From Arthrobacter sp. (GTDB taxonomy: Bacteria > Actinomycetota > Actinomycetes > Actinomycetales > Micrococcaceae), in NCBI GenBank assembly GCA_036390955.1, contig DASWAW010000325.1:1-52551 (forward strand): 52,551 nt of DNA. Direction: 5' to 3'. This document shows, piece after piece, positions 1,437 to 52,550 of this stretch. Position 1 is the stretch's first letter; the number at the start of each line of letters is the position of its first letter. A model generated the notes under the pieces. It was not told where the DNA came from. It saw only the letters and a program-made list of their open reading frames with translations, and did no database searches. A program made the position numbers and the translations under genes.

Positions 1437-1445
1437 TGTGTGCGG
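1437..1445 (-). promoter_or_regulatory. Class C motif CCGCACACA
   Basis: Recurrent motif upstream of 604..1401. Confidence 0.6.
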
Positions 1446-1461
1446 CACTCCTCCCAAAGGG

Positions 1462-1485
1462 CCGTCACGGCGGTGCCTGCGCATG
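1462..1485 (+). promoter_or_regulatory. Class B motif CCGTC-N13-CGCATG
   Basis: Recurrent bipartite motif upstream of the LysM gene. Confidence 0.55.
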
Positions 1486-1542
1486 GTCCCTAGCTGGGCC
1501 CTGGTGAATTACCGGGCCCGTTGAACCCACCTAAGGAACACC

Positions 1543-2406
1543 GTGAAGAAACTCGACACATCCTTCGGCTTGTCGAAGCTCAAATGCGGCCTACGCTCCG
1601 CATTCCGGATCGCCACGATTTCCGGAACCATCGTCCTGTCCGTTTCCATGTCGGCCTGCGCACCTCCGTCCGCCACTCCCGCACCGGAATCCGTCGCAAT
1701 GGTCCAGGAGGTCCAGCAGGACCCGACCGCCACGGCAGCAGCAACAGCTTCGGACGCGCCGGCCCCCGACGCCTCGGCTCCTGCCGCAGCAACGGAGGCC
1801 CCGGCACCTGAGGCGCCTGTACCGGCGGAAGCCCCGTCGAACGACTACTCCGTGCAGTCCGGCGACACGGTAGACACCATCGCAGCCGCCCACGGGGTGG
1901 ACACCTACGGCATGCTCGCAGCCAACGGCCTGGGCATTTACAGCGTCATCGTTCCGGGACAGGTCCTGAAGCTCGCCGGCCCGGCGATCAGCGTTCCCGC
2001 GTACACACCGGCACCCGAGAGTGCCCCTGCACCAGCCGGCCGCGCCGCGGCTCCGGCCCCCGTGGCTGCGGCACCAGCCGGCCGAACGATCTACGTCGCC
2101 GGCTCCGGCGGCCAGGGCATGGTGGACCGGTGCATCGGGCCGATCCACTTCACCCCTGACGATGCCTGGTCGCTGTTCATCGTCGAGCACGACAGCTGTG
2201 GCGGATGGGCTCGCTTCTCGGGCATCGGCGTCGGCGAAACCGTCACGATCGCCGGTTACGGCACCTACACGGTGACGGGCCGGGGACAGGTCCCCAACCC
2301 CGGCACAACCGGCAACGTGGTCGCAGCCCTGGGCTCCATGCCCCGCGCCGTGCTGCAGACCTGCATCCCGGGCACCAACCAGATGCTGGTCATCGGCCTG
2401 AACTGA
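1543..2406 (+). CDS. LysM-domain probable lipoprotein with C-terminal sortase-like fold
   Basis: Hydrophobic signal ending SMSAC; YSVQSGDTVDTIAAAHGV LysM; C-terminal His plus VLQTC. Confidence 0.75.
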   Translation: MKKLDTSFGLSKLKCGLRSAFRIATISGTIVLSVSMSACAPPSATPAPESVAMVQEVQQDPTATAAATASDAPAPDASAPAAATEAPAPEAPVPAEAPSNDYSVQSGDTVDTIAAAHGVDTYGMLAANGLGIYSVIVPGQVLKLAGPAISVPAYTPAPESAPAPAGRAAAPAPVAAAPAGRTIYVAGSGGQGMVDRCIGPIHFTPDDAWSLFIVEHDSCGGWARFSGIGVGETVTIAGYGTYTVTGRGQVPNPGTTGNVVAALGSMPRAVLQTCIPGTNQMLVIGLN

Positions 2407-2416
2407 TCCAGGCAGC

Positions 2417-2450
2417 AAAGGGCCCGGCGGGAAATCCCGCCGGGCCCTTT
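2417..2450. terminator. Bidirectional rho-independent terminator
   Basis: AAAGGGCCCGGCGGGA-AA-TCCCGCCGGGCCCTTT palindrome between convergent genes. Confidence 0.8.
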
Positions 2451-2479
2451 CTCTTTGCCTGCGCCTGCTCCCCCGGCGG

Positions 2480-3361
2480 TTAGCCGAACTTGTTGATGAC
2501 GTTCAGGACGGCCGGGCCGAGAAGGGCGATGAACAGTACGGGCAGGATGCAGAGCATGAGCGGGATGATGACCTTGACCGGAATCTGCATAGCCTTCTCC
2601 TCCGCGCGCTGGCGGCGTTTGAGCCGGATTTCCCCGGCCTGGGTCCGCAGCACCTTGCTGATCGAGATGCCGTAGATGTCGGCCTGGACCACCGAACGGA
2701 CGAACGTGTCCAGATCCGGTACAGCGGTCCGTTCCGCCAGCGCTTCGTAGGCTTCCCGGCGCGATCGGCCGATCTGCATGTCCTGGAGGGTGCGGAGCAG
2801 TTCGTCCGCCAGCGGTCCTTTGCCTTTCTCTCCTGCCCGGGACATGGCGGAATCGAACCCGAGCCCGGCTTCAACAGCGATCATCATCTGGTCCAGGGTG
2901 TCCGGCAACTCAAGGGCAATGGTCTTCTGCCGCTCCTGGCCGCGGCCTTGAAGCAGGAGATCCGGAACGAAGAAGGCGACGACGGTCACGACAATGACGA
3001 GCAGGAGCAGCGGGCCGCCCAGGTGGCCGCTGAAGAGAAGCAGGCACAGCAACAGCGCCACGACTGCCAGGACCGGTTTGGCGGCGATGACCCGGGACAC
3101 GGTCCATGCCGGCGGCCTCCCTGCCAGGGCATGGAGGCGGTCCAGGCGCGCTACGGTGCGCGGCAGGGTGAGTCGGCGGGCGGCGGCGACGAACGACCAG
3201 TCACGTCGTGCTGAGATCTTTTCGGTGCTGCCGGTGAATCCGCGGGACAGGTTTTCCAGAATGACCGGCCGGCCTTTGTCGCGGGCGAAGAACAGAAACC
3301 AGAGCAGCACCGGCACGGAGACTGTGATGGCGAGGATTCCCAGGGTTATGGTCGTCGGCAT
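2480..3361 (-). CDS. tadC: Tad pilus assembly protein TadC (T2SS F family)
   Basis: ELPDTLDQM...AGLGFDSA...AEEKAMQIPVK; position in the locus. Confidence 0.9.
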   Translation of the reverse strand: MPTTITLGILAITVSVPVLLWFLFFARDKGRPVILENLSRGFTGSTEKISARRDWSFVAAARRLTLPRTVARLDRLHALAGRPPAWTVSRVIAAKPVLAVVALLLCLLLFSGHLGGPLLLLVIVVTVVAFFVPDLLLQGRGQERQKTIALELPDTLDQMMIAVEAGLGFDSAMSRAGEKGKGPLADELLRTLQDMQIGRSRREAYEALAERTAVPDLDTFVRSVVQADIYGISISKVLRTQAGEIRLKRRQRAEEKAMQIPVKVIIPLMLCILPVLFIALLGPAVLNVINKFG

Positions 3362-3389
3362 GGAGGGTGCTTTCTGCAGTGCGGGAGGG

Positions 3390-4319
3390 CTAGAACTTGA
3401 AGGTGACGATTTTCTTCATCCAGAGTCCGCCGACGGTCATCATGATGGCGCCGGCGGCCACCATGGCCCATCCGATGACGCTGGATCCGAAGCTCGCAAT
3501 GTAGGACGGGCTGATGATGGCCAGGACGCCGATGATCAGGACGGGCAGGGACGTGAGGATGTACGCGGAGATTTTGCCTTCGGCGCTGAGCGCTTTGACC
3601 TGGCGCTGAATCTGGCCGCGCTCACGGATGGTCCGTCCGACCTGGTCCAGGACTTCGGCAAGGTCCCCGCCGACTTCACGGTGGATGCCGATGGCCTGGG
3701 CGACCCAGCTGAAGTCCTCGCATTTCATCCGCTCCGAGGTCTGGTCCATGGCCGCGTTCAGGTCCCGGCCGAGCCTGGTTTCGTTGATGATGCGGGAGAA
3801 CTCTTCGGCGGTCGGGGACGGTGCCTGCTGGGATACGGCGTCGATGGCGCGCAGCAGGCTATGCCCGGCGCGCAGTCCGCCGGAGAGGAGCTGCAGCGAA
3901 TCGTCCATCTGGGCGGCGAACTTCTTGCGCCGCTTGTCAGCAAGGACGGACAGGTACATTTTCGCGCCCAGGGCGCAAGTACCCGCACCGAGCACCGCCG
4001 TCAGCGCTCCACCCAGAAGGGTGCCGCAGATGCCGCCGATCAGGCAGGCCGCCCCGGCCAGGATCAGAAAGTCAGCCGGAGCGATGACGAGTCCGGCCTG
4101 TTCCAGGGCTGAGGCGATCCCTCGTGTCCAGCCGCGGCGGTTCAGGAAGTCTTCGATGGACCCCGTGGTGATGCCGGTGATGCGGCTCAGCACCGAGGCC
4201 CCTTCCGGGGCCGCCGGGCGCCGCAGCTCTGCCGGCAGGGGCGGACGACCGGGTTTCAGCACGGCCACCCCGAAGACAGCCAGTGCGGCGTAGCAGCAGA
4301 TGAACCCGAAAACGAGCAT
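3390..4319 (-). CDS. tadB: Tad pilus assembly protein TadB
   Basis: LRAGHS...GGDLAEVLD...ALSAEGKISA. Confidence 0.9.
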   Translation of the reverse strand: MLVFGFICCYAALAVFGVAVLKPGRPPLPAELRRPAAPEGASVLSRITGITTGSIEDFLNRRGWTRGIASALEQAGLVIAPADFLILAGAACLIGGICGTLLGGALTAVLGAGTCALGAKMYLSVLADKRRKKFAAQMDDSLQLLSGGLRAGHSLLRAIDAVSQQAPSPTAEEFSRIINETRLGRDLNAAMDQTSERMKCEDFSWVAQAIGIHREVGGDLAEVLDQVGRTIRERGQIQRQVKALSAEGKISAYILTSLPVLIIGVLAIISPSYIASFGSSVIGWAMVAAGAIMMTVGGLWMKKIVTFKF

Positions 4320-5722
4320 TACCGGCCCCCGGGCCGAGCCGGCGGCGTGCCGAAAACCGACGGGGAGAGCTTGATCCCGAGGTCATCGAACTTGTCGGTG
4401 AACTTGGGGCGGACCCCGGTGGACACCGGCTTGCCCAGGAAGCGGCCGTCGGCGTCGATTCCGGCGCTGTAGTCGAAGACGAAGGCGTCCTGCAGCGTGA
4501 CGATGTCGCCTTCCATGCCCTGGACTTCGGTGACGTGGGTGACCCGGCGGGTGCCGTCCCGGAGCCGGGTGAGCTGGATGATGACATCCACGGCGGAGGC
4601 GATCTGCTCCCGGACCGCCCGCAGCGGAAGGTCCATGCCGGCCATCAGGACCAGCGTCTCCATGCGCGAGATCGCATCCCGCGGGGAGTTGGAGTGAATC
4701 GTGGACAGAGACCCGTCATGGCCGGTGTTCATCGCCTGGAGCATGTCCAGTGCCTCACCGCCACGGCATTCGCCCACGACGATCCGGTCGGGGCGCATCC
4801 GGAGGGAGTTCTTGAGCAGGTCCCGGATGCTGATTTCGCCTTTGCCTTCAACGTTGGAGGGCCGGCTTTCGAGCCGGACGACGTGGTTCTGCTGGAGTTG
4901 GAGTTCGACGGCGTCCTCGATCGTGACGATGCGCTCTCCGGCGGGGATGAAGGATGAGAGCACGTTCAGCAGGGTGGTCTTCCCGGTGCCGGTGCCTCCC
5001 GAGACGATGATGTTCAGGTGGGCTTTGACGCAGGCGTCCAGCAGTTCCGCCATTTCCGGGGAGATCGACCCGAAGCGCACCAGGTCGGCGACTTTCAGCG
5101 GGTCGGCGGCGAACTTACGGATTGTCAGGGAGGATCCGTTGACAGCCAGCGGCGGGATCACCGCGTTGACCCGGGAGCCGTCGGCTAGACGGGCATCCAC
5201 CATCGGGGAGGATTCGTCGATGCGCCGGCCGACACGGGAGACGATCCGTTCGATGACCCGGCGCAGGTCGTCTTCGGATTTGAAGTGTGCCTGGGTTTCG
5301 GTGACGATGCCGTTCTGCTCCACGAAGATCTGGTCCGGGCCGTTGACCATGATTTCGGAGACGGTTTCATCGTCGAGCAGCCGCTGGAGCGGACCGTAGC
5401 CCATCACGTCATCGCTGATCTGGGTGACCAGGCGCTGGCGCTCCTGGCTGCTGAGCGGGACGCTCTCCGCGTCGACGATCTGGATGAGTTCCTCGCGGGC
5501 GTAGGCGAGCAGACCCTCCTCGGCGAGGGTGGGGTCGTTCAGCCGGGCGCCGATCCGTTCGAAGAGGGCGGCGCCGGCGCGCTGCTTCAGCCCGGAAAGG
5601 GCGTCCTCCTGGTGGGCCGGGGCTTTGGCGGGCTCGGCGGTGACGGCCGGCGCGGGCCGGTCTTCGGTGATGGTGCTGGCTCCAGTGCCGGTTTGGGCAT
5701 CAAGGCGTTCGGCGAGATTCAA
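4319..5722 (-). CDS. tadA: Tad secretion ATPase TadA/CpaF
   Basis: GGTGTGKTT Walker A, TIEDAVEL, LRMRPDRIVVGE, MNTGH. Confidence 0.95.
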   Translation of the reverse strand: MNLAERLDAQTGTGASTITEDRPAPAVTAEPAKAPAHQEDALSGLKQRAGAALFERIGARLNDPTLAEEGLLAYAREELIQIVDAESVPLSSQERQRLVTQISDDVMGYGPLQRLLDDETVSEIMVNGPDQIFVEQNGIVTETQAHFKSEDDLRRVIERIVSRVGRRIDESSPMVDARLADGSRVNAVIPPLAVNGSSLTIRKFAADPLKVADLVRFGSISPEMAELLDACVKAHLNIIVSGGTGTGKTTLLNVLSSFIPAGERIVTIEDAVELQLQQNHVVRLESRPSNVEGKGEISIRDLLKNSLRMRPDRIVVGECRGGEALDMLQAMNTGHDGSLSTIHSNSPRDAISRMETLVLMAGMDLPLRAVREQIASAVDVIIQLTRLRDGTRRVTHVTEVQGMEGDIVTLQDAFVFDYSAGIDADGRFLGKPVSTGVRPKFTDKFDDLGIKLSPSVFGTPPARPGGR

Positions 5723-6918
5723 GATACATCGGCCCTTCGGTGCAGTCCCTTGCGGGGCTTGGATTCCATCGCGGGATCAAATCGGTCCACGAGCCTGCGG
5801 AGCGCTTTGGCTGCCTTGTCCCGCGACCGCTGGTGGAGCAGGGGTTCGCCCTGGTTCGTGGAGTAGGACAGGGCCTTGGAGCTCGGGATGGCAAGATCCA
5901 CCGGCGCCCCGAGCGTGGCCTCGACGTCCTGGATGGACAGTCCGCTGTCCCGGACGGCGTTGTTGACGACCAGGTGCCGGCCGTGGGAGGTCATACCCAG
6001 CTTGTCCAGAACATCGAGCTCCTTACGGGCCCCGCGGACGCTGGGAACGTCCATGCCGCACAGGATGACGGCGTCGGTCGCCGCCTCCAGCGCAGCCAGG
6101 GTGTGCTCTCCGAGGCCCGGGGCGGTGTCGATGACCACGTATTGGAATTCGCTGGCCAGCTGCTGAAGCACCCGGGTGATCTGCGCCCCGCTGATGCGGT
6201 TGCTGTCCGCCGGGTCCGAGGGGGCGCAGAGCGCGTAGATGGATGCCGGGTGGACGCTGAGGAGGGTCTTCAGGACCATGGTGTCCTGTGCTCCGGCGCC
6301 GGTGACCGCGTCTTTGAGTGTGTGTTCCGGGACGATCCGCAGGACGGTGTCCACGTCGCCGAACTGGATGTCCAGGTCCACCAGCACGGTCGACATCGGC
6401 GCAATCTTGCCCAGACCGACCGCGAGGTTGGTGGCGACGGTCGTCTTGCCGACACCGCCTTTGGCCGCGGTGACCACGATGACCTTTCCCCGGGATTCTT
6501 CCGGGGCGGCTTCCTGCGAGATGATCCGGCTCCGGCTGGCCGATGACAGGCAGGCCCGCTCCAGCAGGACGCGGATCATGTCGGGGTCAGCCTGGGGGCC
6601 CAGAATGTCACGGACACCGGCCCGCATCCCGGCGAGGGCCAGGTCCGGGTCGGTGTCCCGGACGAGGATGAGGCTGATTTCAGGATGCTGGACGTCAAAG
6701 ACTGCGGCCAGCCGGAGCACGGCTTCGAGGTCTGTATCGGGTCCGAACAGAATGACCTGCGGCGGCCCGTCGGTCATGGTCTTCAGGACAGCATCCGGGG
6801 TCTCAGGCAATGAGGTGTGAGGAAAGACCTGCATGGTTCCCGGCAGGCGGTCGGTGATCGCCGTCTTGACCCGCTGGATGAAGGCGGAGTCGGACGTGAG
6901 GAGAACGAAGCGGCTCAT
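5719..6918 (-). CDS. cpaE: CpaE/TadZ pilus localisation ATPase (receiver-like domain plus MinD-like domain)
   Basis: AKGGVGKTT deviant Walker A; DLDIQFGD. Confidence 0.88.
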   Translation of the reverse strand: MSRFVLLTSDSAFIQRVKTAITDRLPGTMQVFPHTSLPETPDAVLKTMTDGPPQVILFGPDTDLEAVLRLAAVFDVQHPEISLILVRDTDPDLALAGMRAGVRDILGPQADPDMIRVLLERACLSSASRSRIISQEAAPEESRGKVIVVTAAKGGVGKTTVATNLAVGLGKIAPMSTVLVDLDIQFGDVDTVLRIVPEHTLKDAVTGAGAQDTMVLKTLLSVHPASIYALCAPSDPADSNRISGAQITRVLQQLASEFQYVVIDTAPGLGEHTLAALEAATDAVILCGMDVPSVRGARKELDVLDKLGMTSHGRHLVVNNAVRDSGLSIQDVEATLGAPVDLAIPSSKALSYSTNQGEPLLHQRSRDKAAKALRRLVDRFDPAMESKPRKGLHRRADVS

Positions 6919-7655
6919 TTGTAGTAACCGTCCTTGGTGACGACGGATGTGCCGTCCCCGTTCGCTGCAGCTGGTTCCTTGGAGAGCCAGAGGGTGCCGT
7001 ACTCGGCGGCGAATACGATTTTCTCGGCCTCGTGGGCGGGCCGTGCCAGCGTGATGAGCATCGCCCCGGTCGGGACGGGCGGGCCCGGCGCCGTGGTTGC
7101 GGCAGCCTTTCCGGTCGGTTCCGCGGGCGCGCCCTGGACGCTGGTGACGAGGACCTTCTGGAAGGCGAGGTGTGTGGTGGGTGATCCCGGGCCTGCACCG
7201 TCCGTAAAGGAAACGAAGATGCCCACCGTGTCGCCTGCTATCAGCTGGCCACCTGCTACACGGTCCGGTCCAAGCTGCACTGTGACTTCCTGCAGCCCGG
7301 CCGGGACCGCGACCTTGCCCGGGATCAACAGCGAGGCCGGGTCGACCAGGCGGGCGTTCAGCAGCTGCTCCCCCTGGAGAAGCTTGGCGGAGGTCACCTT
7401 TCCATCGAGGGTGGACATGTCAGTGACGGCCCCTGGTGCGATGGCGGACACCGGCACGGATGCTGTTTTGGTGAACTTGGTGAGCTCCGCAGCGGGGGTG
7501 TTTGCCGGAACTTCCTTGTCGATCACGTAGATGTTCCGGACCTCCGCACCGTGCATCGCACGCTGGTCGGCGCCTTGGACGTAGGAGGTGACAGCGACAG
7601 TGCCGGTCACGGCGAGAAGGAGCGCGGCGGCGGCCCCGATAAGGCGGGTTTTCAA
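6915..7655 (-). CDS. cpaB: Flp pilus assembly protein CpaB/RcpC (SAF domain)
   Basis: N-terminal TM, SAF-like domain, GDTVGIFVS; position in the locus. Confidence 0.85.
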   Translation of the reverse strand: MKTRLIGAAAALLLAVTGTVAVTSYVQGADQRAMHGAEVRNIYVIDKEVPANTPAAELTKFTKTASVPVSAIAPGAVTDMSTLDGKVTSAKLLQGEQLLNARLVDPASLLIPGKVAVPAGLQEVTVQLGPDRVAGGQLIAGDTVGIFVSFTDGAGPGSPTTHLAFQKVLVTSVQGAPAEPTGKAAATTAPGPPVPTGAMLITLARPAHEAEKIVFAAEYGTLWLSKEPAAANGDGTSVVTKDGYYK

Positions 7656-7713
7656 GAGTCCGGTGCTCCTAAGAGGGTCCAGGCGGTAATGGTCGGTGGT
7701 GCGTGAAGGAATA

Positions 7714-7722
7714 TGTGTGCGG
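7714..7722 (-). promoter_or_regulatory. Class C motif inside the Tad cluster
   Basis: CCGCACACA upstream of cpaB. Confidence 0.55.
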
Positions 7723-7764
7723 CGTCGGGAGTAAACGTGCCCGCGGGGGTTCTCTGCACCCCGG

Positions 7765-8748
7765 CTATCCGATCAGGGTGACGATGTTCGCCCCGAGATC
7801 GGCTCCGGTTCCGGTGAAGTTGTCATCCAGGGAGACGAAGCTGACGAACTGTCCGATGATTCCCTTGCATGAGCCTTTGCAGGTGGCCCCGGTGTAGGCG
7901 TTGCTCTGATAGCTGGATCCCGGGTAGTTCCAGCCGAGAAGCTTGAAGGCGGCCCAGCCGGTGATCTTGTACCAGCCGCCGGCCCCGGCACCGCTCAAAT
8001 CGCTGTAGACCGGCAGCAGGACGGTCTTGTCGGCGTTGGCGGCAAGGACAGCGGCGCACCCTGTGGGGAGGCTGATGCCGGTGTCGCTGGTCATCATGGC
8101 GTTCAAGGCAACATCGACACTGGCGTTGCAGACCCCTGACGGAGTGGAGAGCCATCCAAACCCGCCGGGGAGGAGCTGCCCTGAAGGGCTGGTGCTTGAG
8201 CACGGGGTCCCGCCGGTGTCTCCGTGGCGGCTGATGACCTGGATGGCGCCGTTGAGCTTGAAGTTGCAGGGTGCGAACGTCAGGGGCAGGACTGCCGGCC
8301 CGCGGGCCGGGCTTCCCCATTGCGCGGTGGAGGTGGCGGCGACGGCGTCAGTTTTGATGCCGAGGACCGGTGCGAACGTGAGCGACAGGTAGCCGGCCCC
8401 GGTCTTGCCGTCCTTGGTGGCTGTCTGGACGGTGACGGCGTTCGAGCTGGGGTAGGTCAGGGACGAGACCCGGGAGGCCCCGTCGTTGGAGTTGGCGTTG
8501 GCGAAGTCCTGGGCGGTGGCCATCTTGAGTGCCGGGTTGGTGCAGTTCGTGGTCATACTGCATTCCTGGGCGATCGCGAGGGCAGCGGCGTCAGCGCCGG
8601 ACTGCAGCTGGGCCCGTTCGGAGTAGAGTGCGCCCGTGTCGATGGCGATGGCTGCGCATCCGATCAGGGCAACCATGGCGAAAGCGACGATCACGGTGAC
8701 GGCACCGCGTTCACCGTCGGGGACGGGTTTCCGTTTCACCCACCGCAC
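7765..8748 (-). CDS. TadG-like pseudopilin
   Basis: ERGAVTVIV...DTG...LQSGADAAALA Tad N-terminus. Confidence 0.85.
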   Translation of the reverse strand: MRWVKRKPVPDGERGAVTVIVAFAMVALIGCAAIAIDTGALYSERAQLQSGADAAALAIAQECSMTTNCTNPALKMATAQDFANANSNDGASRVSSLTYPSSNAVTVQTATKDGKTGAGYLSLTFAPVLGIKTDAVAATSTAQWGSPARGPAVLPLTFAPCNFKLNGAIQVISRHGDTGGTPCSSTSPSGQLLPGGFGWLSTPSGVCNASVDVALNAMMTSDTGISLPTGCAAVLAANADKTVLLPVYSDLSGAGAGGWYKITGWAAFKLLGWNYPGSSYQSNAYTGATCKGSCKGIIGQFVSFVSLDDNFTGTGADLGANIVTLIG

Positions 8749-9116
8749 CGCATCACGCTCTTTCCTGTAAGGTCCAGGCCGCGGCTAAGGAACCCTGTGA
8801 TGAAATCCAGATGGTAGGTGACAGTGACGGTGGTGTTGGCTCCGGTCGTGCAGGTTGCGGGGCTGATCTGTATCTGCGCATTTTTCAGCTGGGGGTTCAG
8901 CGACGGTGAGGCTGCAATGACAGCCGCCTGGGCCCCAGCGACGTTCTTCTGGATGGACATCACCCGCGCGCCTTCCCGTGCCGCGGCCGTGACAGAAATC
9001 TGGACGTTGTACGCCCGGCCGAACTCGACGATGCCGAGCATGAGGCCAATGAGGAGCGGGAGGATCAGGGCGAACTCTACGGCGACCGAACCGCGTTCGG
9101 ACCGGAACTTTTTCAT
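8736..9116 (-). CDS. tadE: TadE-like pseudopilin
   Basis: ERGSVAVEFALILP...AAREGAR. Confidence 0.9.
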   Translation of the reverse strand: MKKFRSERGSVAVEFALILPLLIGLMLGIVEFGRAYNVQISVTAAAREGARVMSIQKNVAGAQAAVIAASPSLNPQLKNAQIQISPATCTTGANTTVTVTYHLDFITGFLSRGLDLTGKSVMRCGG

Positions 9117-9196
9117 GTCAGGCTTCCTGTCCGAACGTAGATCTGCCCCGCGGCCGCCTTCGCAGCAACGGGGCAGATTTGTTCGAGGCGGGCCGC

Positions 9197-9403
9197 TTAG
9201 GCCGGCTTCGGGAGGCTGTTGGTCACGGAGGTGAACAGGTTGGCCAGCTGTGGGCCGAGGATGACCAGCGCGGCGATGATCGCTACCGCGATCAAACCGA
9301 CCAGCAGTCCGTATTCGACTGCCGTGGCACCCTTTTCTTCGCTGGCGAGGCGGTTCTTCGTGGTCTCGAGGAAGGAGAAGAAGGTAGCGAAGAGCGGATT
9401 CAT
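9197..9403 (-). CDS. flp: Flp family type IVb pilin
   Basis: EEKGATAVEYGLLVGLIA Flp motif. Confidence 0.93.
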   Translation of the reverse strand: MNPLFATFFSFLETTKNRLASEEKGATAVEYGLLVGLIAVAIIAALVILGPQLANLFTSVTNSLPKPA

Positions 9404-9634: not shown

Positions 9635-10186
9635 TCAGGCTGCCAGGCGAAGACCGGACGTGTGGGCCGCCCGGTATGCCGCGGCCCAGGCTTCGATCGG
9701 GGCAATCAGGGTCGGCTCTCCCGGGCCGGCGAGCAGACCGACGCGCTCCAGCCGGTCCCAGGCACGGAAGCCGTGCGGGGCCTGGTCGGTCTTCACCCAT
9801 TTGAGGGCCTTGGAGACCATCGCGAACTCGGCGACCGGTTCCACCGGCACCGGCCAGCGGTCCGGGGCAACACAGGCGAGCCAGCGCACATGGCCGGCGC
9901 GGGCACCAAGGATCGGGAACATGCCCAGAGCGATTTCTTTGTCACCGTGGCCGGCCTGGACGACGGAACCGGATGCCGCGGCCCGGATTCCCGCGCCGGA
10001 GTCCTTCCATGCCTTCACCTGGATCGCGGCATCGGCCAGGACGTAGAGGTCGCCGATGTCTTCTGCCCGTCCGGCGCCCAGGTGCCGCATTGCTTTCGCG
10101 AGGGCGAACTCCGGGAGGAGGCCCACCATGACGGGGACCGCCTCGCGCTCGAAGCGGTCGCCTTTGTTCTTTGAAGTGTTAGCCAT
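9635..10186 (-). CDS. PD-(D/E)XK nuclease, phage Holliday-junction-resolvase-like
   Basis: NTSKNKGDRFERE...DIGD...IQVK pattern. Confidence 0.65.
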   Translation of the reverse strand: MANTSKNKGDRFEREAVPVMVGLLPEFALAKAMRHLGAGRAEDIGDLYVLADAAIQVKAWKDSGAGIRAAASGSVVQAGHGDKEIALGMFPILGARAGHVRWLACVAPDRWPVPVEPVAEFAMVSKALKWVKTDQAPHGFRAWDRLERVGLLAGPGEPTLIAPIEAWAAAYRAAHTSGLRLAA

Positions 10187-10194
10187 GCCAGTAA

Positions 10195-10217
10195 CTATGC
10201 GTAGACCTCACCGACGG
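10195..10217 (-). promoter_or_regulatory. Class A motif CCGTC-N11-CGCATAG
   Basis: CGCATA lies 9 nt before the ATG at 10186. Confidence 0.7.
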
Positions 10218-10261
10218 GGCGCCTGTACTGTCGCGAAAGGGGGCGCTAAGGCTACTTTGGA

Positions 10262-10285
10262 CCGTTCGCGAAGAATCTACGCATG
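10262..10285 (+). promoter_or_regulatory. Class B motif CCGTT-N13-CGCATG
   Basis: Upstream of the 10331 CDS. Confidence 0.55.
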
Positions 10286-10330
10286 CTCCATGACAGAGGC
10301 CACCACATCACGTACCAAGAGGATCTAAAC

Positions 10331-11230: not shown

Positions 11231-12154
11231 ATGCTCGCCGTGCAGGAAACCTTCATTCCTGCCGGAGCGTGGCTGAAAGCAGATGGAACAGTCGACATAA
11301 CCGTCGGCGGCAAAGTGCTCGACGGTGGGTACGGCGTCAACATGCAGACCGCCATCCACGCGCTCCGGCGTTACGCGTCCCAGCACGGGCCGCTGCTGAT
11401 GACTACACTGCTGCCCGACGGCCGGTCCAACATGGATACTGTCCACCCGGACGGCACCGTCAAGAAGTACGACACTGCGCCGCACACGGTCCCCGCCCGC
11501 CCGCTCGGGCACGGGGCCGGAATCCACACTGAGCACCAGAACGGCTCTTCCCTGCCTCCTGTGCGGCAGAATCGTCCACTGGCACCGGCCGAGGGCCATG
11601 AATTCTTCAACTTTGGGCCAGCAGGGTCTCGCCCGCGACGGCAAATGCCGCCTGCAGAGGACATGGATTTCGGTCTCCCGCCGCGGTCACTGGCCCCGGC
11701 TGATGACGCGGACTTCTTCGGCCTGCCGCCATTGAAGGCCGATCATACGGTGCCCGGGGGTCACAACAGACCCGTCCGGGTGGATCCTTTCAGTGACCGG
11801 CCGGTGTTCCGCCCCACAGAGCACGCCCATGCCCCACGCCAGGACGGCCACATGACTCGGCCCCCGGACCGCGGCCTGGGCCTGCAGCGGAACCCAATAC
11901 TGCACCCGGTGGCGGTGACCCGGACAGAGGTCACCCCGGGGCGCCCGGCCCTGAGCGTGAAGGCTGTGGCCCTGGAACGACACCGGGCCGCGTCCCCACT
12001 GATGACCCTCGGCTTCGTCCTGGTGACCATGCTGCTCGCGGCTGCCCTGGTCATGTTCGGCCCCATGATCCTGCTGCACACCGGCGTCTGGGATCCGTTT
12101 CAGGCGTTGCACGGCGCGGCCGAGCCGGCCCGCCCGACGCCTTCGGCGCCCTAA
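11231..12154 (+). CDS. Hypothetical membrane protein (Pro-rich linker, C-terminal TM)
   Basis: ORF 3 nt downstream of the previous gene; hydrophobic C-terminal segment. Confidence 0.6.
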   Translation: MLAVQETFIPAGAWLKADGTVDITVGGKVLDGGYGVNMQTAIHALRRYASQHGPLLMTTLLPDGRSNMDTVHPDGTVKKYDTAPHTVPARPLGHGAGIHTEHQNGSSLPPVRQNRPLAPAEGHEFFNFGPAGSRPRRQMPPAEDMDFGLPPRSLAPADDADFFGLPPLKADHTVPGGHNRPVRVDPFSDRPVFRPTEHAHAPRQDGHMTRPPDRGLGLQRNPILHPVAVTRTEVTPGRPALSVKAVALERHRAASPLMTLGFVLVTMLLAAALVMFGPMILLHTGVWDPFQALHGAAEPARPTPSAP

Positions 12155-12175
12155 TGTCGAGCGGGGACGCCGCTG

Positions 12176-12184
12176 CCGCACACA
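12176..12184 (+). promoter_or_regulatory. Class C motif
   Basis: CGCACA lies 10 nt before ATG 12193. Confidence 0.6.
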
Positions 12185-12192
12185 TGCCGTTT

Positions 12193-12526: not shown

Positions 12527-12534
12527 TGAGCCCC

Positions 12535-41596: not shown

Positions 41597-41612
41597 CCGG
41601 ACACCGAAAGTG

Positions 41613-43865: not shown

Positions 43866-43873
43866 GGTGCTCT

Positions 43874-43896
43874 CTATGCGGTCGAGGTCCCCACGG
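43874..43896 (-). promoter_or_regulatory. Class A motif (CCGTG)
   Basis: CGCATA lies 9 nt before ATG 43865. Confidence 0.7.
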
Positions 43897-44005
43897 CCGA
43901 CAGGTCCAGGCGGCGGGGTGAAGAAAAGGCGGGCCCGCCACCGGTAATCCAGTGGCGGGCCCGGGCGGATCCGACATCCGCCCAGTGCGCAGGGCTGTGC
44001 GGGCC

Positions 44006-45621: not shown

Positions 45622-45629
45622 GAACCTTA

Positions 45630-45638
45630 TGTGTGCGG
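45630..45638 (-). promoter_or_regulatory. Class C motif
   Basis: CGCACA lies 10 nt before GTG 45621. Confidence 0.6.
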
Positions 45639-45668
45639 CCCCGGACGTTAATGTGCACAAGGAACATG

Positions 45669-45684
45669 TGTGAACTGACTCACA
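45669..45684. promoter_or_regulatory. CRP/GlxR-type site
   Basis: Perfect TGTGA-actgac-TCACA in an intergenic region. Confidence 0.55.
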
Positions 45685-45744: not shown

Positions 45745-48210
45745 TTAGACTGCTGCCCCGGCCAGTGCCAGTTCGGCGTTGCGGGCATTCAGGTCATCGG
45801 AGTTCGTGGAAGCGAGCTTCAGGAACGCCGGCGGCAGGACGATCTCGATCGGAACACACCGGCCGGCGAGGTCGGAGTAGTACCCGACGGTGCCGCGCAG
45901 GACCGTCTTCGTGATCGGGTCGCGCAGGGCACGCATCGAGGACCAGTTCGGGGCAACGGATTCCCCGTCGCCCAGCATGGCCTTGCCGGTGATGCGCGTC
46001 ATCCGCTCCTCGGTGGCTTCGAGCTTGAACAGCTCCAGGGCCGCGCGGGCCTCGTCCTTGTCCTCGATGGGCAGGATCAGGCCGCGGGAGATGTAGCCGG
46101 CCAGCCCGGCCTTCAGCGGGTCAGAGGCGCGCTGCGTGTACAGCTCCGGGAGCACCTGCTGGGAACGGGCCAGACGGCCCAGGCGCTCGACCTCGGCTTT
46201 GCCGGCGCCCAGGAACACCCAGGCCTCATCGAGGTGGATCGCCCCGCCGCGGCCGGTGAGGGCCATCGCGGAACCGAACACCATCATGCGGACCAGCGCC
46301 AGGGACACCTTCTGCATCAGGGAGGCGCTCTCCATCGCACCGGGCTCCGGCAGATCCAGGTGCGTGTTGCCGACCTTGATCAGCGTGATGCCCTCGTTGA
46401 TGGACAGTGCCTTCGTGTGCGGATCCACGCCGACACAGGCACGGAACAGCGGGGAGGTGTTCGCGAGCCGGAAGATCGGGTCCACCAGTTCCTGGCTCGC
46501 CTGGTTCGCGTCGAGTGCCATCTGCAGCGCCTGGCCCACGCAGGTAGCGCCCTGGGAGACGCCGAAGGACAGGGCCGTGTACAGGTGCACCTCGTACTCC
46601 TTGGCCTTGCCGCCCCACGGGTCGATGGAGGCGAGCATGGACACTGCCAGCTCCACGCCGACGGTCGGGTTCGGCGAGAAGCGCAGCGGGTCGAAGATGC
46701 CGTCGGCGCCCTTGAGGTCATCGAGGGAAGCGACCTGTCCGCCGTGGGCCAGGACCGTCGGAGAATGATCAGATCCGGTTTTCGGGTCGATGATAACCTG
46801 GGGCCCGCCGAGCTTGGCGAACTGGATTGCCTTCCAGAGCAGCACCATGGATTTACCGGAGCCGGTCGCGCCCAGGTTGACGAAGATCGGGGCCGCGTCG
46901 CCGGAGGATGCTGCCGTCGGGGACTCGTAGGCGGGCTGTGAATCCCGTTCGGTGAAGCCCAGCAGTGCGCCGTCCTTGTCGCCGACCGTGGACAGGGACT
47001 GGATCCCCGAGCACGCGATGACTTGGATGGGCAGGTCGTGAAGGTTCGGGTTGGCACGGATGTTCGAGCACATCAGCATTTCGGCCAGACCCTGGCGCTG
47101 GCGGAAGTTCATGATCCGCAGGTTCGCCGCGGACCGGGGCCCGGCCTGGGTGATGTCTTCGACTTCGCCGTTGAACGCGACCAGCACGGAGGCGTCCACC
47201 AGGGTCGGGGAACCGCCGCCGGCGTACACGCCCTCGACAGCCTCGAGGGTGCCGAGCATTTCCTGCTGCCGGCCATCCTCCATCTTGTTCTGCTTGTGGC
47301 GTTCGTTGATGTCATCCATGTACCGCTTGCGCTGGCGGCGCAGTTCCTGGCGGGTGATCTTGGCCGGCTCTACGCCGCCACGGATCGAGATCGCCACGGC
47401 ACCGTCTTCAACGAGGCCGGTCGCCCAGTGGGCCATGGAGGATTCGGAGGATTCGAACTCGAAGCTGAAGTCCTCCAGGGTCGCGATCGTCAGGGACCGG
47501 TGCTTGGGGATTTCCGGCCAGTTGGTGCAGTCTTCCCGACCGGCATCATTGGCCATCCGGACAGCTTTCGTGTCGGAGAAGACGTGCAGGTGGTCCGAGT
47601 GCGGCAGGTCCACGGTGTCCGGGAACTCGCCCTGGTTCCACCAGGAGTTGGCGATCGAGATTTCCTGGGCGGTGGGCGTGGCGAGGCCGCAGCGGGCCAT
47701 CGCCGCATCGACCTTGCGCAGGTCATCGTCGTAGTCGCTCATCGGTGTACCGCCGCTGACGAGGGTCTCCACGACGGAGTCCACGGCCTTGCTGAACCCG
47801 CCCTTGGCGCCCACCGAGGGCACCAGCCGGACACCGAACAGTGCCAGGCGCTTCTCGGTAGCCTGCTTCGGGAAGGATTCTTTGAGGAAGCCAGCGATTT
47901 TGTGCCCGGCCGGGTTGTACAGCCGGGTCAGGTTCACCATCAGCAGCTGCGTCTGGCGGTATTTGTTCCGGGACATGGAGCGGCGGTTGCCGGTCGTGGA
48001 CGCCATCGCGGAGAGCTCCTCGTAGGCGGCCATCAGCGGCATGTACACGTTCATGCGTTCGGAGATGGACTTGGCATCCGCGACCGGTTCCAGCGGGAGC
48101 CGGCGCCACAGCCAGTACGAGCCGTCGACCGCCAGCAGGCGGCCCTCGGGAAGCTTGGTCCGGACCATGGTGGAGACGGACACTTCGTAATTCATTGAGG
48201 CTTTAGCCAT
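45745..48210 (-). CDS. virB4: VirB4/TcpF-like conjugative ATPase
   Basis: GATGSGKS, IIDPK, LDEAW, ARSQ. Confidence 0.8.
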   Translation of the reverse strand: MAKASMNYEVSVSTMVRTKLPEGRLLAVDGSYWLWRRLPLEPVADAKSISERMNVYMPLMAAYEELSAMASTTGNRRSMSRNKYRQTQLLMVNLTRLYNPAGHKIAGFLKESFPKQATEKRLALFGVRLVPSVGAKGGFSKAVDSVVETLVSGGTPMSDYDDDLRKVDAAMARCGLATPTAQEISIANSWWNQGEFPDTVDLPHSDHLHVFSDTKAVRMANDAGREDCTNWPEIPKHRSLTIATLEDFSFEFESSESSMAHWATGLVEDGAVAISIRGGVEPAKITRQELRRQRKRYMDDINERHKQNKMEDGRQQEMLGTLEAVEGVYAGGGSPTLVDASVLVAFNGEVEDITQAGPRSAANLRIMNFRQRQGLAEMLMCSNIRANPNLHDLPIQVIACSGIQSLSTVGDKDGALLGFTERDSQPAYESPTAASSGDAAPIFVNLGATGSGKSMVLLWKAIQFAKLGGPQVIIDPKTGSDHSPTVLAHGGQVASLDDLKGADGIFDPLRFSPNPTVGVELAVSMLASIDPWGGKAKEYEVHLYTALSFGVSQGATCVGQALQMALDANQASQELVDPIFRLANTSPLFRACVGVDPHTKALSINEGITLIKVGNTHLDLPEPGAMESASLMQKVSLALVRMMVFGSAMALTGRGGAIHLDEAWVFLGAGKAEVERLGRLARSQQVLPELYTQRASDPLKAGLAGYISRGLILPIEDKDEARAALELFKLEATEERMTRITGKAMLGDGESVAPNWSSMRALRDPITKTVLRGTVGYYSDLAGRCVPIEIVLPPAFLKLASTNSDDLNARNAELALAGAAV

Positions 48211-49993: not shown

Positions 49994-50029
49994 GGGTGTC
50001 GTGCTCCTTCTGGTTGGTCCACCGGGGAA

Positions 50030-50053
50030 CATGCGTAGACCTTGGCGGAACGG
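50030..50053 (-). promoter_or_regulatory. Class B motif CCGTT-N13-CGCATG
   Basis: Upstream of operon 49993->45745. Confidence 0.6.
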
Positions 50054-50059
50054 GCAAAA

Positions 50060-50101
50060 CGACAGAGCCCCGCCACCGGGTAGGTGACAGGGGCTCTGTC
50101 G
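50060..50101 (-). terminator. Rho-independent terminator
   Basis: CGACAGAGCCCC...GGGGCTCTGTCG with a T-tract on the minus strand. Confidence 0.7.
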
Positions 50102-50118
50102 TCGCAGGACGGGGCTGG

Positions 50119-50646
50119 TTAGCCCTTCATGTCCTTGGCGGCACGTGCCTTACCGGCGGCCAGGTCGTCCTCGGTGATCGAGGTGTCCTCGCCGAGGTCC
50201 GAGACGTGCTGGAGGATGCGGAACTTCCGGGTCGGGTCGTCGCGGCCGGTCTGCATTTCCACATACACGAGGACGCGGTGGCCGACCATGTTCTCGCGCA
50301 GGTCCTTGGCGAACGCGGTGACGGAGTCGTTGCCTTCGACGATCTCGGTGCGGACGGTTTCGATGCCTTCGGCGTTGAGCTTCGTCGGGGACGTCTTGAG
50401 GACCACGAAGCCGCGCTTGGAGGACTTCTCCTTGCCGACGTACAGCACGGTGCCGATGAACTTCTTCGCGTCGTCGAGCATGTCGATCGTCTTGGCGATG
50501 TTCGAGCCGTCCGCCAGCAGCGTGGTGAGGTGCTTGGCGTTGGCGATCAGCTTCATCTCCCATTCGGCTGCGCTGTCGCCGACCGCGCCGGTCATGCCGA
50601 CGGCGCCAAGGATGATGTTATTGCGGGTCAGGGTGTCAAGAGCCAA
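50119..50646 (-). CDS. Hypothetical protein (possible OB-fold)
   Basis: Strong codon bias; AGGAAA before the TTG start. Confidence 0.65.
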   Translation of the reverse strand: MALDTLTRNNIILGAVGMTGAVGDSAAEWEMKLIANAKHLTTLLADGSNIAKTIDMLDDAKKFIGTVLYVGKEKSSKRGFVVLKTSPTKLNAEGIETVRTEIVEGNDSVTAFAKDLRENMVGHRVLVYVEMQTGRDDPTRKFRILQHVSDLGEDTSITEDDLAAGKARAAKDMKG

Positions 50647-50699
50647 GGGAATTTCCTGCTTTCATATGTGGGTCATACGGGGTGGTGGGGTGGAACGGA

Positions 50700-52505
50700 C
50701 TAGGCGGCGTCTTCGTCCTCGTCAGGGAAGTCGTGGTCGCTGAGACCGGCGGGAGCCGGGGCGGGCTTGATCGTGGTCACGGTCGCGGCGACCGGGGCCT
50801 CGACGACTGCGGGGACCTCGGCTACCGGGGCGGGAGCTTCGACGACTGCTTCGGCAACAGCCTTGGCAGGAGCCTTGGCGCGGGCCTTGGGGGCAGCCTT
50901 GACCGTTTCGGCGGACTCGGTGGCTGTGATTCCGGCCAGTGCCGCCCACGGGCGCTCGGGAGCCTCGTCGTGGTAGGTGGAGAGGGCAACGGACGTGATG
51001 GCCTTGCACCGGCGCAGAGCCGCGCTGGCCCATTCGTCCCACGCGGCTTCGTCCTGGCCGAACGGCAGGGGAAGCGTGTCGATCACGGAGCGCAGGGCAC
51101 CGCGCATCCGGGTGTTGGCGCCATCCATCAGGGACCTGGACCCGGTCCAGTGGAACTGGGCGTCAGAGACGATGGAAAGGAACGTGAAGGCCAGGGCCTT
51201 GACGGTCGAACCCTTAAGTTCGATCCCGGCCTTGGAGAGTACGTCAACGGCCAGGCTGGCGTTGCCAATGGCGGCAATGGACGCGAACGAGTTGGGGTTC
51301 AACTCGCCGTCGGCGGTTTCGATCCAAACCTTGTCCTCGGTGATTTTCGGCATATCTTCCTCATCGGAGTCGTTTTTCGGGTTCTCCCCGCTGACATTCA
51401 TGTGTGCGGCAAGCTCGCTGGCCCTCTCCACCAGCGCGAGGTCTTCGGCCGGGATTTTTGACAGGTCCGGGGCGAAGAGAATGAGGTTCCCGTCGCTGTC
51501 CACGGAGTCATCCGGAACCGGCTCGGGAGCAGCCGCGGCGCCGGGGCGCAGGGACGGGATTCCCAGGTCGGTGGCGGAGAGCAGGCCGTCGATCTTGCCT
51601 TCCTTGCCCTCGGCCTTGGCGACCGGGCAGGAGTTCACGAGCGGGCACCAGCCGCACAGGGCGGAAACCTTCGTGGGGAACTCAGCGTTCTTCATGTACC
51701 GGTTGTGCCGGTCCCAGGAGAGCTTGAACGTCTTCAGGGTCTTGGCCATGGCGGACTCGGACAGGTCCACATCGCGCTTCTCACCGAACTTCGTGTAGAG
51801 CACGGTGGCGCCGACAGCCTTCTCGCCGGTCTTCGCTTCCAGGGCCGCAGCGTAGATCCTCAGCTGGTCCCCGTGGTCGTCGCCGTAGCGCAGGCTGTAC
51901 TTCGACGGGACCTTACCCGTCTTAAAATCTTCAGCTATCAGGCCGTATTTCTGAGTGATCGCACCAGTGCCTTCCTGGATCCGGTCGATGAATCCGTTGA
52001 TCGGGACACCGTTGAGGAACAGTCCGTCGATCTGCGTTTCGCGGCCCCACACGTTGATGGATTTCGGGTCCTCGATCGTCCACAGGCCCTCGTAGGAGGT
52101 GCGGACATCGGCGATCCAGCGGTAGCGGTTGATCCGCACGGCGGCGCGTACAGCGTCGTCAGCGTTCGGGTCATCGGCCCAGAGCTTGTCGGCGTGGCGT
52201 TCGACGATGCTGGCGGCGGTGCGCATGGTCCGCATTTCGACGGCAAATTCACGGACGTCGAACAGGTCTTCCAGGACCGCGTGGCCGGAGGTTCCCAGGG
52301 GCGCCGGCGCGAACGGGTCTTCCTCTTCGGAGCGCAGCAGGCGCTCCCCTACCCAGCGCGCGGCGCACGACTGCATGGACTTGGACGTGGACGGCGACAG
52401 TGCGGCACGCCTCAGCTTGTTTTCGACGAGCCCGTCGCCGGTGACGACGAGCGTCTTGCCGTCCCAGGCGAGCTTGTCGCGGAGCAGTGGCGTGTGATTG
52501 GTCAT
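50700..52505 (-). CDS. RecB/PD-(D/E)XK exonuclease-family protein with an extra C-terminal domain
   Basis: LSPS...C, GTSGH.VLE, GFIDRI, EDFKTG, QLRIY, LCGWCP...CP. Confidence 0.85.
   Translation of the reverse strand: MTNHTPLLRDKLAWDGKTLVVTGDGLVENKLRRAALSPSTSKSMQSCAARWVGERLLRSEEEDPFAPAPLGTSGHAVLEDLFDVREFAVEMRTMRTAASIVERHADKLWADDPNADDAVRAAVRINRYRWIADVRTSYEGLWTIEDPKSINVWGRETQIDGLFLNGVPINGFIDRIQEGTGAITQKYGLIAEDFKTGKVPSKYSLRYGDDHGDQLRIYAAALEAKTGEKAVGATVLYTKFGEKRDVDLSESAMAKTLKTFKLSWDRHNRYMKNAEFPTKVSALCGWCPLVNSCPVAKAEGKEGKIDGLLSATDLGIPSLRPGAAAAPEPVPDDSVDSDGNLILFAPDLSKIPAEDLALVERASELAAHMNVSGENPKNDSDEEDMPKITEDKVWIETADGELNPNSFASIAAIGNASLAVDVLSKAGIELKGSTVKALAFTFLSIVSDAQFHWTGSRSLMDGANTRMRGALRSVIDTLPLPFGQDEAAWDEWASAALRRCKAITSVALSTYHDEAPERPWAALAGITATESAETVKAAPKARAKAPAKAVAEAVVEAPAPVAEVPAVVEAPVAATVTTIKPAPAPAGLSDHDFPDEDEDAA
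51401..51409 (-). promoter_or_regulatory. Class C motif inside the CDS, upstream of in-frame ATG 51353
   Basis: CCGCACACA followed by GAGGAAGAT-ATG. Confidence 0.5.
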
Positions 52506-52512
52506 GTACTTT

Positions 52513-52550
52513 CTATGCGTCCAAGGCGACCACGGGTGTCGTTTTTTGCA
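52513..52550 (-). promoter_or_regulatory. Extended class A motif
   Basis: TGCAAAAAACGACACCCGTG-N11-CGCATAGAAAG; CGCATA lies 8 nt before ATG 52505. Confidence 0.75.

Follow-up and report, generated by a model that had tools for sequence, protein, structure and literature searches.

Candidate private promoter classes and divergent sigma-70-type factors on a Micrococcaceae megaplasmid

Many genes on the stretch of DNA analyzed here, 52,551 nucleotides of an Arthrobacter sp. assembly that we call the window, are preceded by recurring motifs with a CGCAYR core, and two of the genes encode proteins that resemble sigma factors. This raises the question of whether the element transcribes its genes through promoters and sigma factors of its own. 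Our analysis suggests that it probably does: four promoter classes private to the element would be read by the host core RNA polymerase together with divergent sigma-70-type factors of the plasmid, in an ordered cascade.

The window (contig C325 of the source assembly G000; 3.8 Mb, 662 contigs, 77.6% complete) is, judged from its sequence, part of a Micrococcales megaplasmid of the pACHL01 type (375-608 kb). It carries genes for DnaE, SSB, an SNF2 helicase, a DinG-like helicase, a methyltransferase, a CHAP hydrolase, a VirB4/TcpF-like ATPase and a Tad pilus cluster. The two sigma-like genes, P0001 (27147-28244, minus strand; 365 residues) and P0057 (44446-45621, minus strand; 391 residues), have matches in the same eight of 72,556 plasmid records, each of 375-608 kb, namely pACHL01, pPA-B-2242, three other Micrococcaceae plasmids and three Curtobacterium plasmids. 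All four candidate factors discussed below, which include a 279- and a 357-residue protein, co-occur in these eight records. The plasmid pPA-B-2242 (pPA), which was read whole, is syntenic with the window and additionally encodes a coupling protein, FtsK, ParA, nrdEFI, thyA, type IV pili, a full flagellar cluster including a FliA-like sigma factor, and an RpoD-like sigma factor. By protein homology to pPA, 40 contigs of G000 (390 kb) were assigned to the element.

Four two-part motif classes

The original prediction had listed 28 copies of three related motifs in the window. From hand-curated lists of CGCAYR occurrences we counted 27 copies of an extended motif (nine of class A, including an A/B hybrid at 10201, five of class B and 13 of class C), and the 28th could not be identified. 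The orientation with the downstream gene claimed for all copies holds for 26 of the 27, which are located outside called genes or at their edges; the remaining copy (51408) is intragenic, in sense orientation within a PD-(D/E)XK gene. An ATG or GTG opening a reading frame of at least 45 amino acids follows the hexamer by 8-10 nt at 13 of the 27 copies. The one at 1444 is not in the frame of the real gene; without it, the count equals the 12 genes originally reported. Gene starts stem from our own hexamer-score caller and are approximate. The hexamer proposed as the shared core is by itself not enriched. We found 87 bare CGCAYR against 167 expected from 100 dinucleotide shuffles, and this under-representation rules out the bare word as the signal. 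The enrichment resides in the extended words, whose regular expressions matched 9, 7 and 13 times in the window for classes A, B and C, compared to shuffled expectations of 0.04, 0.61 and 1.19.

This enrichment extends to the rest of the element. A comparison of motif density between the element and the remaining genome, the check proposed along with the original prediction, gave 5.9 (A), 5.1 (B), 25.2 (C1) and 9.2 (C2) sites per 100 kb on the 40 element contigs, compared to 0.03, 0.23, 0.38 and 0.38 on the other 622 contigs (3.42 Mb), and thus 22- to 200-fold higher values on the contigs defined by homology alone. This is the sole comparison that is independent of the motifs, because the other element sets were hand-adjusted: for the logos and the start-codon, pyrimidine-purine (YR) and matrix analyses, contigs C100, C510, C2, C229 and C307 were added partly on motifs, and C177, C107 and C556 were taken out. 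Sites more than 60 nt inside called genes were dropped, and class A was limited to sites with a CCGT-like box. On pPA we counted 21 A, 23 B, 97 C1 and 39 C2 sites, at the same densities as on the G000 element contigs. Weight matrices trained on pPA found 159 sites in 409 kb of G000 element contigs (7 A, 14 B, 104 C1, 34 C2), while the 3.40 Mb of other G000 contigs yielded no A or B, two C1 and three C2 sites, and 20 shuffles none.

The logos from G000 and pPA resolve four two-part classes in place of three, with class C splitting into C1 and C2. In every class, a box lies at a set distance upstream; it is least pronounced in B and C2. With positions counted from the C of the CGCA core, class A consists of CCGTCGGG at -16 followed by CGCATAGA, and of the intergenic CGCATAG words on the two replicons, 22 of 30 and 21 of 27 have CCGT at -16. 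Class B combines a weak GSCCGT at -20 with TCTACGCATGTT, class C1 CGGKGAG at -22 with KCCGCACACAT (box at -21 in 61 of 103 and 48 of 95 sites), and class C2 a weak TGCC at -20 with GCCGCACACAG. The motifs are asymmetric, and the spacers between the conserved boxes are unconserved. A sharp ATG peak follows the hexamer, at 10 nt for C1 and at 9 nt for A, B and C2. With G000 and pPA pooled, an ATG lies exactly at the predicted start for 90 of 198 C1, 48 of 84 C2, 12 of 72 B and 8 of 44 A sites. Of the sites with no start codon there, 44 of 57 in class B and 58 of 87 in class C1 have a YR dinucleotide at that position. Two boxes at fixed spacing, a YR start (strong for B and C1) and a start codon at +1 are traits of leaderless promoters. 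The -10 consensus of SigA-type factors is TANNNT, at -12 to -7. In agreement with the original prediction, the logo letters at these positions (CACATG in C1, ACACAG in C2, ATAGA. in A and ATGTTC in B) do not match it in any of the four classes. We regard the motifs as likely promoters.

Class membership is largely retained among relatives. It is kept for 16 of 18 motif-headed window genes with orthologs in pPA and for at least 10 of 18 in pACHL01, where two orthologs switch class and the rest are motif-free, partly since start calls are approximate. These comparisons bear on a reading in which the motifs act at the level of RNA or translation, for instance as signals in a leader, for processing or for the ribosome, or are left over from dispersed repeats. 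The fixed spacing to start codons would suit such a role, and the identical class A copies at 17515 and 17606 do stem from a duplication. However, the YR signature appears at the same offset in leadered genes, the spacers vary between conserved boxes, and the class persists across orthologs of 45-80% identity, so that we find this reading barely credible. The duplication itself (17500-17660) is direct, with a spacing of 91 bp, and leaves ssb with a pair of identical class A sites upstream; two A sites likewise occur at this place in pPA.

Gene content of the classes and an N-terminal tag

The assignment of class A to replication and of class B to conjugation and the cell surface, originally made from the window, holds on the complete relative pPA. 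There, class A heads dnaE, ssb (twice), helicases, a methyltransferase, thyA, nrdF, nrdI-E and FtsK, as well as the ParA operon, fliA, flgB and flhA. In the window, plus-strand class A sites precede dnaE (site 12661-12694, gene 12772-17043) and, as the first and second copy of the duplication, ssb (17515-17548 and 17606-17639). On the minus strand they stand 8 nt before the SNF2 helicase (33611-33644), 9 nt before the DNA methyltransferase (39695-39728), an HA-domain gene (41066-41099) and the DinG-like helicase (43870-43903), and 8 nt before the PD-(D/E)XK nuclease (52509-52542, overlapping contig C629). The A/B hybrid (10191-10224, minus strand) lies 9 nt before a RusA-like gene (9635-10186). 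Class B on pPA heads the coupling protein, the VirB4 operon, CHAP, umuD and fliA, in addition to seven sites in the pilus region. Its window sites are found on the plus strand at 10257-10290, at 18240-18273 before an HNH gene and at 19160-19193 before the CHAP peptidoglycan hydrolase gene, and on the minus strand at 26668-26701 before a small membrane-protein operon, presumably of mating-pair genes, and at 50025-50058, heading an operon that ends in the VirB4/TcpF-like ATPase (45745-48210). The VirB4-type ATPase (AAA_10/TcpF-like) and the CHAP wall hydrolase are traits of Gram-positive type IV secretion systems (T4SS), and a T4SS DNA-transfer protein is annotated on pPA. PLSDB types all eight plasmid records as non-mobilizable; no search aimed at a relaxase was made.

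For class C, predicted to serve regulators and accessory genes, the accessory part applies to C1, whose sites on pPA are scattered across long runs of small hypothetical genes. In the window, C1 sites are located on the minus strand before cpaB of the Tad pilus cluster (7711-7744), at 30008-30041 and 34020-34053, and 10 nt before a helicase/DUF4379 gene (38524-38557), and on the plus strand at 12154-12187 and 12496-12529, both with leaderless spacing, and at 17053-17086. The intragenic copy (51398-51431, minus strand; gene 50700-52505) is likewise of class C1 and is conserved in all four orthologs checked. It has an upstream GGAG box and would yield a separate C-terminal product; the codons at this position (AAHM) also constrain the sequence.

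Class C2 does not serve regulators in general; it heads proteins that share an N-terminal tag of ~25 residues with the core G-x-P-x-G-G-Q/E-F, followed by H-x-E/D and Leu (family pattern R/H-x-P-x-G-x-P-x-G-G-Q/E-F-x4-H-x-E/D-x4-L). The first gene behind a C2 site is tagged in 27 of 38 cases in G000 and 30 of 41 on pPA, compared to 2 of 153 and 5 of 135 behind the other classes. A narrower tag pattern occurs in 35 of 545 element genes and in 6 of 3,420 other genes, with most of these six not genuine. Membrane-like stretches were found in none of 79 tagged proteins compared to 97 of 443 plasmid proteins. When the 40 tagged proteins of pPA were scanned against Pfam, 35 gave no hit; matches were to DUF7007 (2), DUF2958, a weak KTSC and a CCA-type nucleotidyltransferase-HD protein. 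Some C2-headed genes of pPA (156566, 160410, 367347, 381880) carry divergent tags of the types HPR..G(R/K)F and RxxDGKF, which may link the tag to a wider peptide family known from phage head-associated proteins. In the window, minus-strand C2 sites precede a tagged DUF2958 gene (site 1434-1467; gene 604-1401, tag at ~1312-1383), a tagged gene of unassigned function (variant site 22710-22743; gene 21952-22653), a glutaredoxin (NrdH-like) gene (41585-41618) and, by 9 nt, P0001 itself (28249-28282), whose tag (residues 17-40) spans 28125-28196 (minus strand). A divergent-tag protein is encoded directly after P0001 (26702-27130, minus strand).

The tag is most likely an export or transfer address for the conjugation machine, and it may route P0001 into new host cells as a protein. 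A comparable idea exists for polyvalent proteins, in which an N-terminal header, ArdC, couples cargo to the conjugation machine (PMC5512222); the main text of that paper contains neither the word 'sigma' nor 'GRF'. The tagged cargo described here includes DUF2958, DUF7007 and a CCA-type nucleotidyltransferase-HD protein. In contrast to polyvalent proteins, it carries a linear tag of ~25 residues on ~40 separate proteins with a promoter class of their own.

Candidate sigma factors

The original prediction named P0001 and, with reservation, P0057 as element-encoded sigma factors. The set appears larger, comprising four divergent candidates, all below Pfam and NCBIfam cut-offs, as well as the FliA-like and the RpoD-like sigma factor. 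For P0001 the prediction is borne out by homology. Behind its tag, the protein has a sigma domain 2 (residues ~55-141), a sigma-3-like LGRxLTxxE segment and a helical C-terminal domain unmatched to sigma 4. A profile of the wide family (121 sequences) matches SigE at E 6e-6, the top 18 rows from the Protein Data Bank (PDB) all being sigma factors, and hhalign against the host sigma factors gave 91% and E 1e-6. NCBIfam sigma models matched below their cut-off (E 6e-4 to 3e-3), and the narrow profile A1 had a sole PDB match, SigW, at E 1.5. The model of residues 56-204 aligns to the sigma factor ShbA with Z 7.6 and a root-mean-square deviation (rmsd) of 3.3 over 82 aligned positions. From profiles and structure model alike, we conclude that P0001 is a sigma-70 homolog with sigma domain 2. 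Pfam gave no region 4 match, and the C-terminal domain (residues 239-360) is well modelled and barely covered by the fold search. Scans of Pfam and PHROGs returned no match for P0001 or P0057. The P0001 family comprises 525 clusters at 50% identity, with a loose tag pattern in 98 of 141 representatives; it was found at three loci in a scan of the genome contigs, in none of 400 other genomes of a class-wide sample and in none of 50,697 phage records. Between P0001 and the neighboring DUF2637-HTH gene (~28440-28560) lie GGACCAC-like short repeats, a possible operator array that also occurs in the relatives L013 and L014.

P0057 is predicted to adopt a sigma region 1.2+2 fold at residues 5-115. 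The model of residues 25-115 aligns to the N-terminal domain of SigE (Z 8.1, rmsd 3.1, 80 aligned), the top 12 rows all contain sigma factors, and the rank-2 Atlas cluster is named sigma-70 (0.95). A comparison of the P0001 and P0057 profiles gave no significant match (E 0.087 for the C-terminal parts) and thus does not establish a common origin of their C-terminal domains. The P0057 gene is preceded by 10 nt by a class C site with a C1 core and a C2-like upstream TGC (45627-45660, minus strand). Above this core is a box (45669-45684, minus strand) resembling TGTGA-N6-TCACA, which we take as the CRP consensus; the distance is 31 nt in the window and in pPA, and 29 nt in G453, a genome of genus g195.

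The two remaining candidates are encoded on contig C629, which adjoins the window, in a class A operon (3889-4728 and 5122-6195, minus strand). The family of the 279-residue protein aligns with the FliA group over 166 columns (hhalign 81%, E 1.2e-5); weak Pfam matches to regions 3 and 4_2 fall below the cut-off, and the best PDB match is FliA at E 0.55. By its profile, this protein is a sigma homolog with domains 2.4, 3 and 4 in order. In the 357-residue protein, a likeness to regions 1.2-2.4 was seen by eye only. A complex prediction with the clamp helices of host beta' lends it weak support, with a score of 0.60 compared to 0.01 for the best control, at least 45% of contacts shared between runs and a partner pLDDT (predicted local distance difference test) of at least 58; of 157 solved pairs, 116 pass the mark for such predictions, 18 of them with a score at or below 0.60, and of 215 mismatched pairs two pass it, both within that range. 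NCBIfam contains no match for P0057 or for the 357- and 279-residue proteins. A 222-residue hypothetical protein (C629 8426-9094, plus strand; IDT60_RS20340 in pPA), without a match in PHROGs or NCBIfam, is kept together with the factors in each of the three flagellar islands described below and is a possible anti-sigma factor or cofactor.

Three other readers of classes A to C were rejected. The RpoD-like sigma factor keeps a SigA-like region 2.4, and the FliA-like one has its own GCCGATAA targets. An RNA polymerase encoded by the element was dismissed as well, G000 containing just pieces of the host rpoC and the NADFDGD motif occurring in none of the 555 called pPA proteins. The RpoD-like factor of G000 (C621 7131-9923, minus strand) has a C-terminal HA-like domain and is fused behind a helicase; its pPA counterpart stands alone after dut.

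The cascade that we propose would start from class C, serving entry, tagged cargo, accessory genes, P0001 and P0057, continue with class A (replication and the operon of the 357- and 279-residue factors) and class B (transfer and surface), and end with FliA and flagellin. P0001, which may reach the recipient as a protein through its tag, would read class C and thereby its own gene, those of the ~40 tagged proteins, ~100 accessory units and P0057. P0057, a candidate upper-tier factor with input at the host CRP-like site, would turn on class A, including the replisome, nucleotide synthesis and the ParA-357aa-279aa operon; the FliA-like 279-residue factor would sustain it. The 357-residue factor would in turn activate class B with the coupling protein, the VirB4 operon, the CHAP hydrolase and type IV pili. 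Finally, A and B promoters would drive the plasmid's FliA and, through it, an ordinary flagellin promoter. Promoter activity, transcription starts and tier order are what we infer from these patterns, and the exact pairing of factors with classes is tentative. A pairing of P0057 with C1 is weakened, since of the 13 genomes besides G000 that carry full-length P0057, 12 contain 0-2 strict C1 words.

Flagellar islands, carriers without the factors and known systems

Chromosomal flagellar islands offer natural deletions of the system. The complete flagellar cluster is plasmid-borne in the megaplasmid family and lies on large chromosomal contigs in g195 and in G711 (clusters at 1.62-1.657 Mb of G453:C2, 2.139-2.173 Mb of G610:C9, 9-48 kb of G711:C25 and 292-322 kb of pPA; L061). 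P0057 has matches in 15 of 400 genomes of the family, nine of them g195. All nine contain the 357-residue gene and one to four class B sites, and none contains P0001. In G453 and G610, the g195 genomes that were read, the plasmid-type flagellar cluster on a multi-megabase contig is directly flanked by the genes for the 357- and 279-residue proteins and P0057. Class B sites precede fliA and flgB, A-like sites flgB, flgD, fliM and flhA, and GCCGATAA the flagellin gene. The G711 island has kept the 279-residue gene, P0057 and P0001 and is without the 357-residue gene, and class B sites are absent from the whole genome. It has A sites before fliA, flgB, flhA and the 279-residue gene, C1-like sites before P0057 and fliM, and a C2 site before P0001. 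The islands suggest, at the level of sequence, a tie between the factors and expression from A and B sites, with the 357-residue protein going with class B and P0001 with class C. In Curtobacterium D40, a P0057 homolog also adjoins the flagellar cluster. A further-reaching version, in which a complete four-tier cascade is ignited in a new host by an injected first sigma factor and ~40 other tagged effectors from a dedicated promoter class, and some Micrococcaceae are motile through a captured flagellar cluster with its mid-cascade, the top being rewired to host CRP, appears somewhat unlikely in full.

Several observations weigh against the proposed cascade. Classes A (14 of 29; purine 25 of 29) and C2 (8 of 20) show a weak YR signal, and p-values of the YR test are overstated, since its position was taken from the ATG peak and the G000 and pPA sites are partly orthologous. 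P0057, suggested as a perhaps-sigma factor, has no sequence-level sigma match in Pfam, PHROGs or NCBIfam; hhalign against the FliA group gave E 0.027, Foldseek found nothing at E<=0.001, and its Z near 8 is not decisive alone, because such values are common for helical proteins. The 357-residue protein has no profile support and no usable Atlas feature hit (model pLDDT 0.33). The g195 and G711 islands represent one event each, and therefore two events, not ten. G686 possesses the 357-residue gene and no strict B site. The same gene is present in Curtobacterium D40, where the 98 of 608 kb read contain no B regular expression match and only divergent CCGCCGCATC/G before B-type orthologs; A-like and C2-like words are found there. 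P0001 cannot be the sole reader of the C core before P0057 in g195, where this core is conserved and P0001 is absent. Strict C1 words, with 38 copies in G000, 40 in G548 and none in 374 of 400 family genomes (reversed control 0), occur in one to five copies in 24 of the 400 genomes without a P0057 match. Five of these 24 were searched further; they lack full-length P0001, 279- and 357-residue genes, and four have tagged genes. In G668, none of the four factors was found. Its IS-rich contig C3 (131,541 bp) is syntenic with pPA 102-181 kb and contains rep, ParA, a coupling protein and 18 tagged genes. Because of this synteny and its many insertion sequences, it is an apparent decayed or deletion derivative. 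Carriers of C sites without factors may be silent relics, depend on helper plasmids or reflect reading of class C by the host.

Our reading as private sigma targets is least secure for class C, and an alternative confines it to A and B: C1, C2 or both would be entry promoters for a host sigma factor or activator, with CRP input, that switch on the element's sigma factors. Sites of both types and tagged genes do persist without the four factors in G668:C3, G537:C91, G444:C1 and G440, the C core in g195 survives beside the CRP-like box, and an entering plasmid requires some host-readable promoter. However, the five matrix matches (two C1, three C2) outside the element give no sign of a host regulon in the 77.6% complete genome, strict C1 is absent from the 374 family genomes, and G668:C3 looks decayed. 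We consider this alternative unlikely.

A different view takes the motifs as operators of plasmid master activators or repressors acting with host SigA, the sigma-like proteins being incidental or activators. Such plasmid-wide activator regulons exist: in IncC plasmids and SXT elements, AcaCD/SetCD form an activator complex that works with the host sigma factor at one motif, and the transfer-gene regulon of the AcaCD type is also used by mobile islands without the activator (PMC4207636). The element-wide regulon described here is similar, and its factor-less C-site carriers may parallel these islands; it differs in its four motifs and in the proposed replacement of the sigma factor. The weak evidence for P0057 and the 357-residue protein as sigma factors speaks for this view. 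It is opposed by the position of the conserved core at ~-19 to -7 of the predicted start, the place of a sigma -10 element, which leaves no TANNNT in leaderless genes, by the asymmetric two-part motifs with fixed spacers, and by the profile homology of P0001 and the 279-residue protein to sigma factors. We judge it highly improbable and retain the private cascade as our interpretation.

Ordered promoter classes are known from phages, where early, replication and late classes are read by element sigma factors on host core RNA polymerase (gp28 and gp33/34 of SPO1, gp55 of T4). The megaplasmid would share ordered classes and element sigma factors with these cascades. Unlike in phages, its late class would comprise conjugation, pili and flagella. 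No PF03237 terminase was found in G000 at its completeness of 77.6%, and the incomplete, mostly hypothetical annotation table of pPA names no phage structural gene. Plasmid sigma factors are known singly, as SigN (ZpdN) of the Bacillus subtilis plasmid pBS32, which PMC6751061 describes as one recognisable, LexA-controlled sigma factor tied to cell death, and multi-sigma programmes are a phage trait. By analogy, the megaplasmid system would extend SigN to four divergent candidates plus FliA-like and RpoD-like sigma factors, four promoter classes and well over 150 promoters per replicon that span replication, conjugation and motility. The FliA/WhiG (sigma-28) group has the promoter TAAA-GCCGATAA (PMC8325347). 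Its sigma 2-3 region aligns with the 279-residue factor and with P0001. In the g195 islands, GCCGATAA precedes the flagellin gene as a target of the element's own FliA, and flagellin promoters there are the only match to TAAA...GCCGATAA. Classes A to C do not match this promoter, sharing with GCCGATAA just GCCG, in class C. We found no description of the motifs, the factors or the tag in the open PMC and bioRxiv literature; subscription journals and supplements, which lie outside this coverage, may hold one. PMC6305408 contains no occurrence of pACHL01, megaplasmid, sigma or flagell.

If the cascade exists, large plasmids can insulate nearly all of their transcription from the host, which bears on how plasmids of 400-600 kb keep their cost low. 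It would also provide orthogonal sigma-promoter pairs for Actinobacteria and a candidate N-terminal transfer signal for Gram-positive conjugation, and explain how flagellar genes are switched on in Micrococcaceae carrying the plasmid-type cluster. The scheme is directly testable, as the host of pACHL01 is a cultured soil strain, P. chlorophenolicus A6.

Further observations concern the architecture of the element. The Tad/Flp pilus cluster of the window (2480-9403, minus strand) is inserted between LysM and RusA-like genes and is not found at that place in pPA; a similar cluster is present on G668:C3. The SNF2 helicase (30068-33607, minus strand) contains Hint and LAGLIDADG domains (an intein), and its orthologs in pPA and pACHL01 are shorter. 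A 102-bp 'NDM-19' prediction at 19658-19759 of L017 is much shorter than the gene and likely an annotation artefact. At ~331-346 kb of pPA, the locus-tag numbers make long jumps, which suggests a tRNA array missing from the list, and G000 has 82 tRNA calls.

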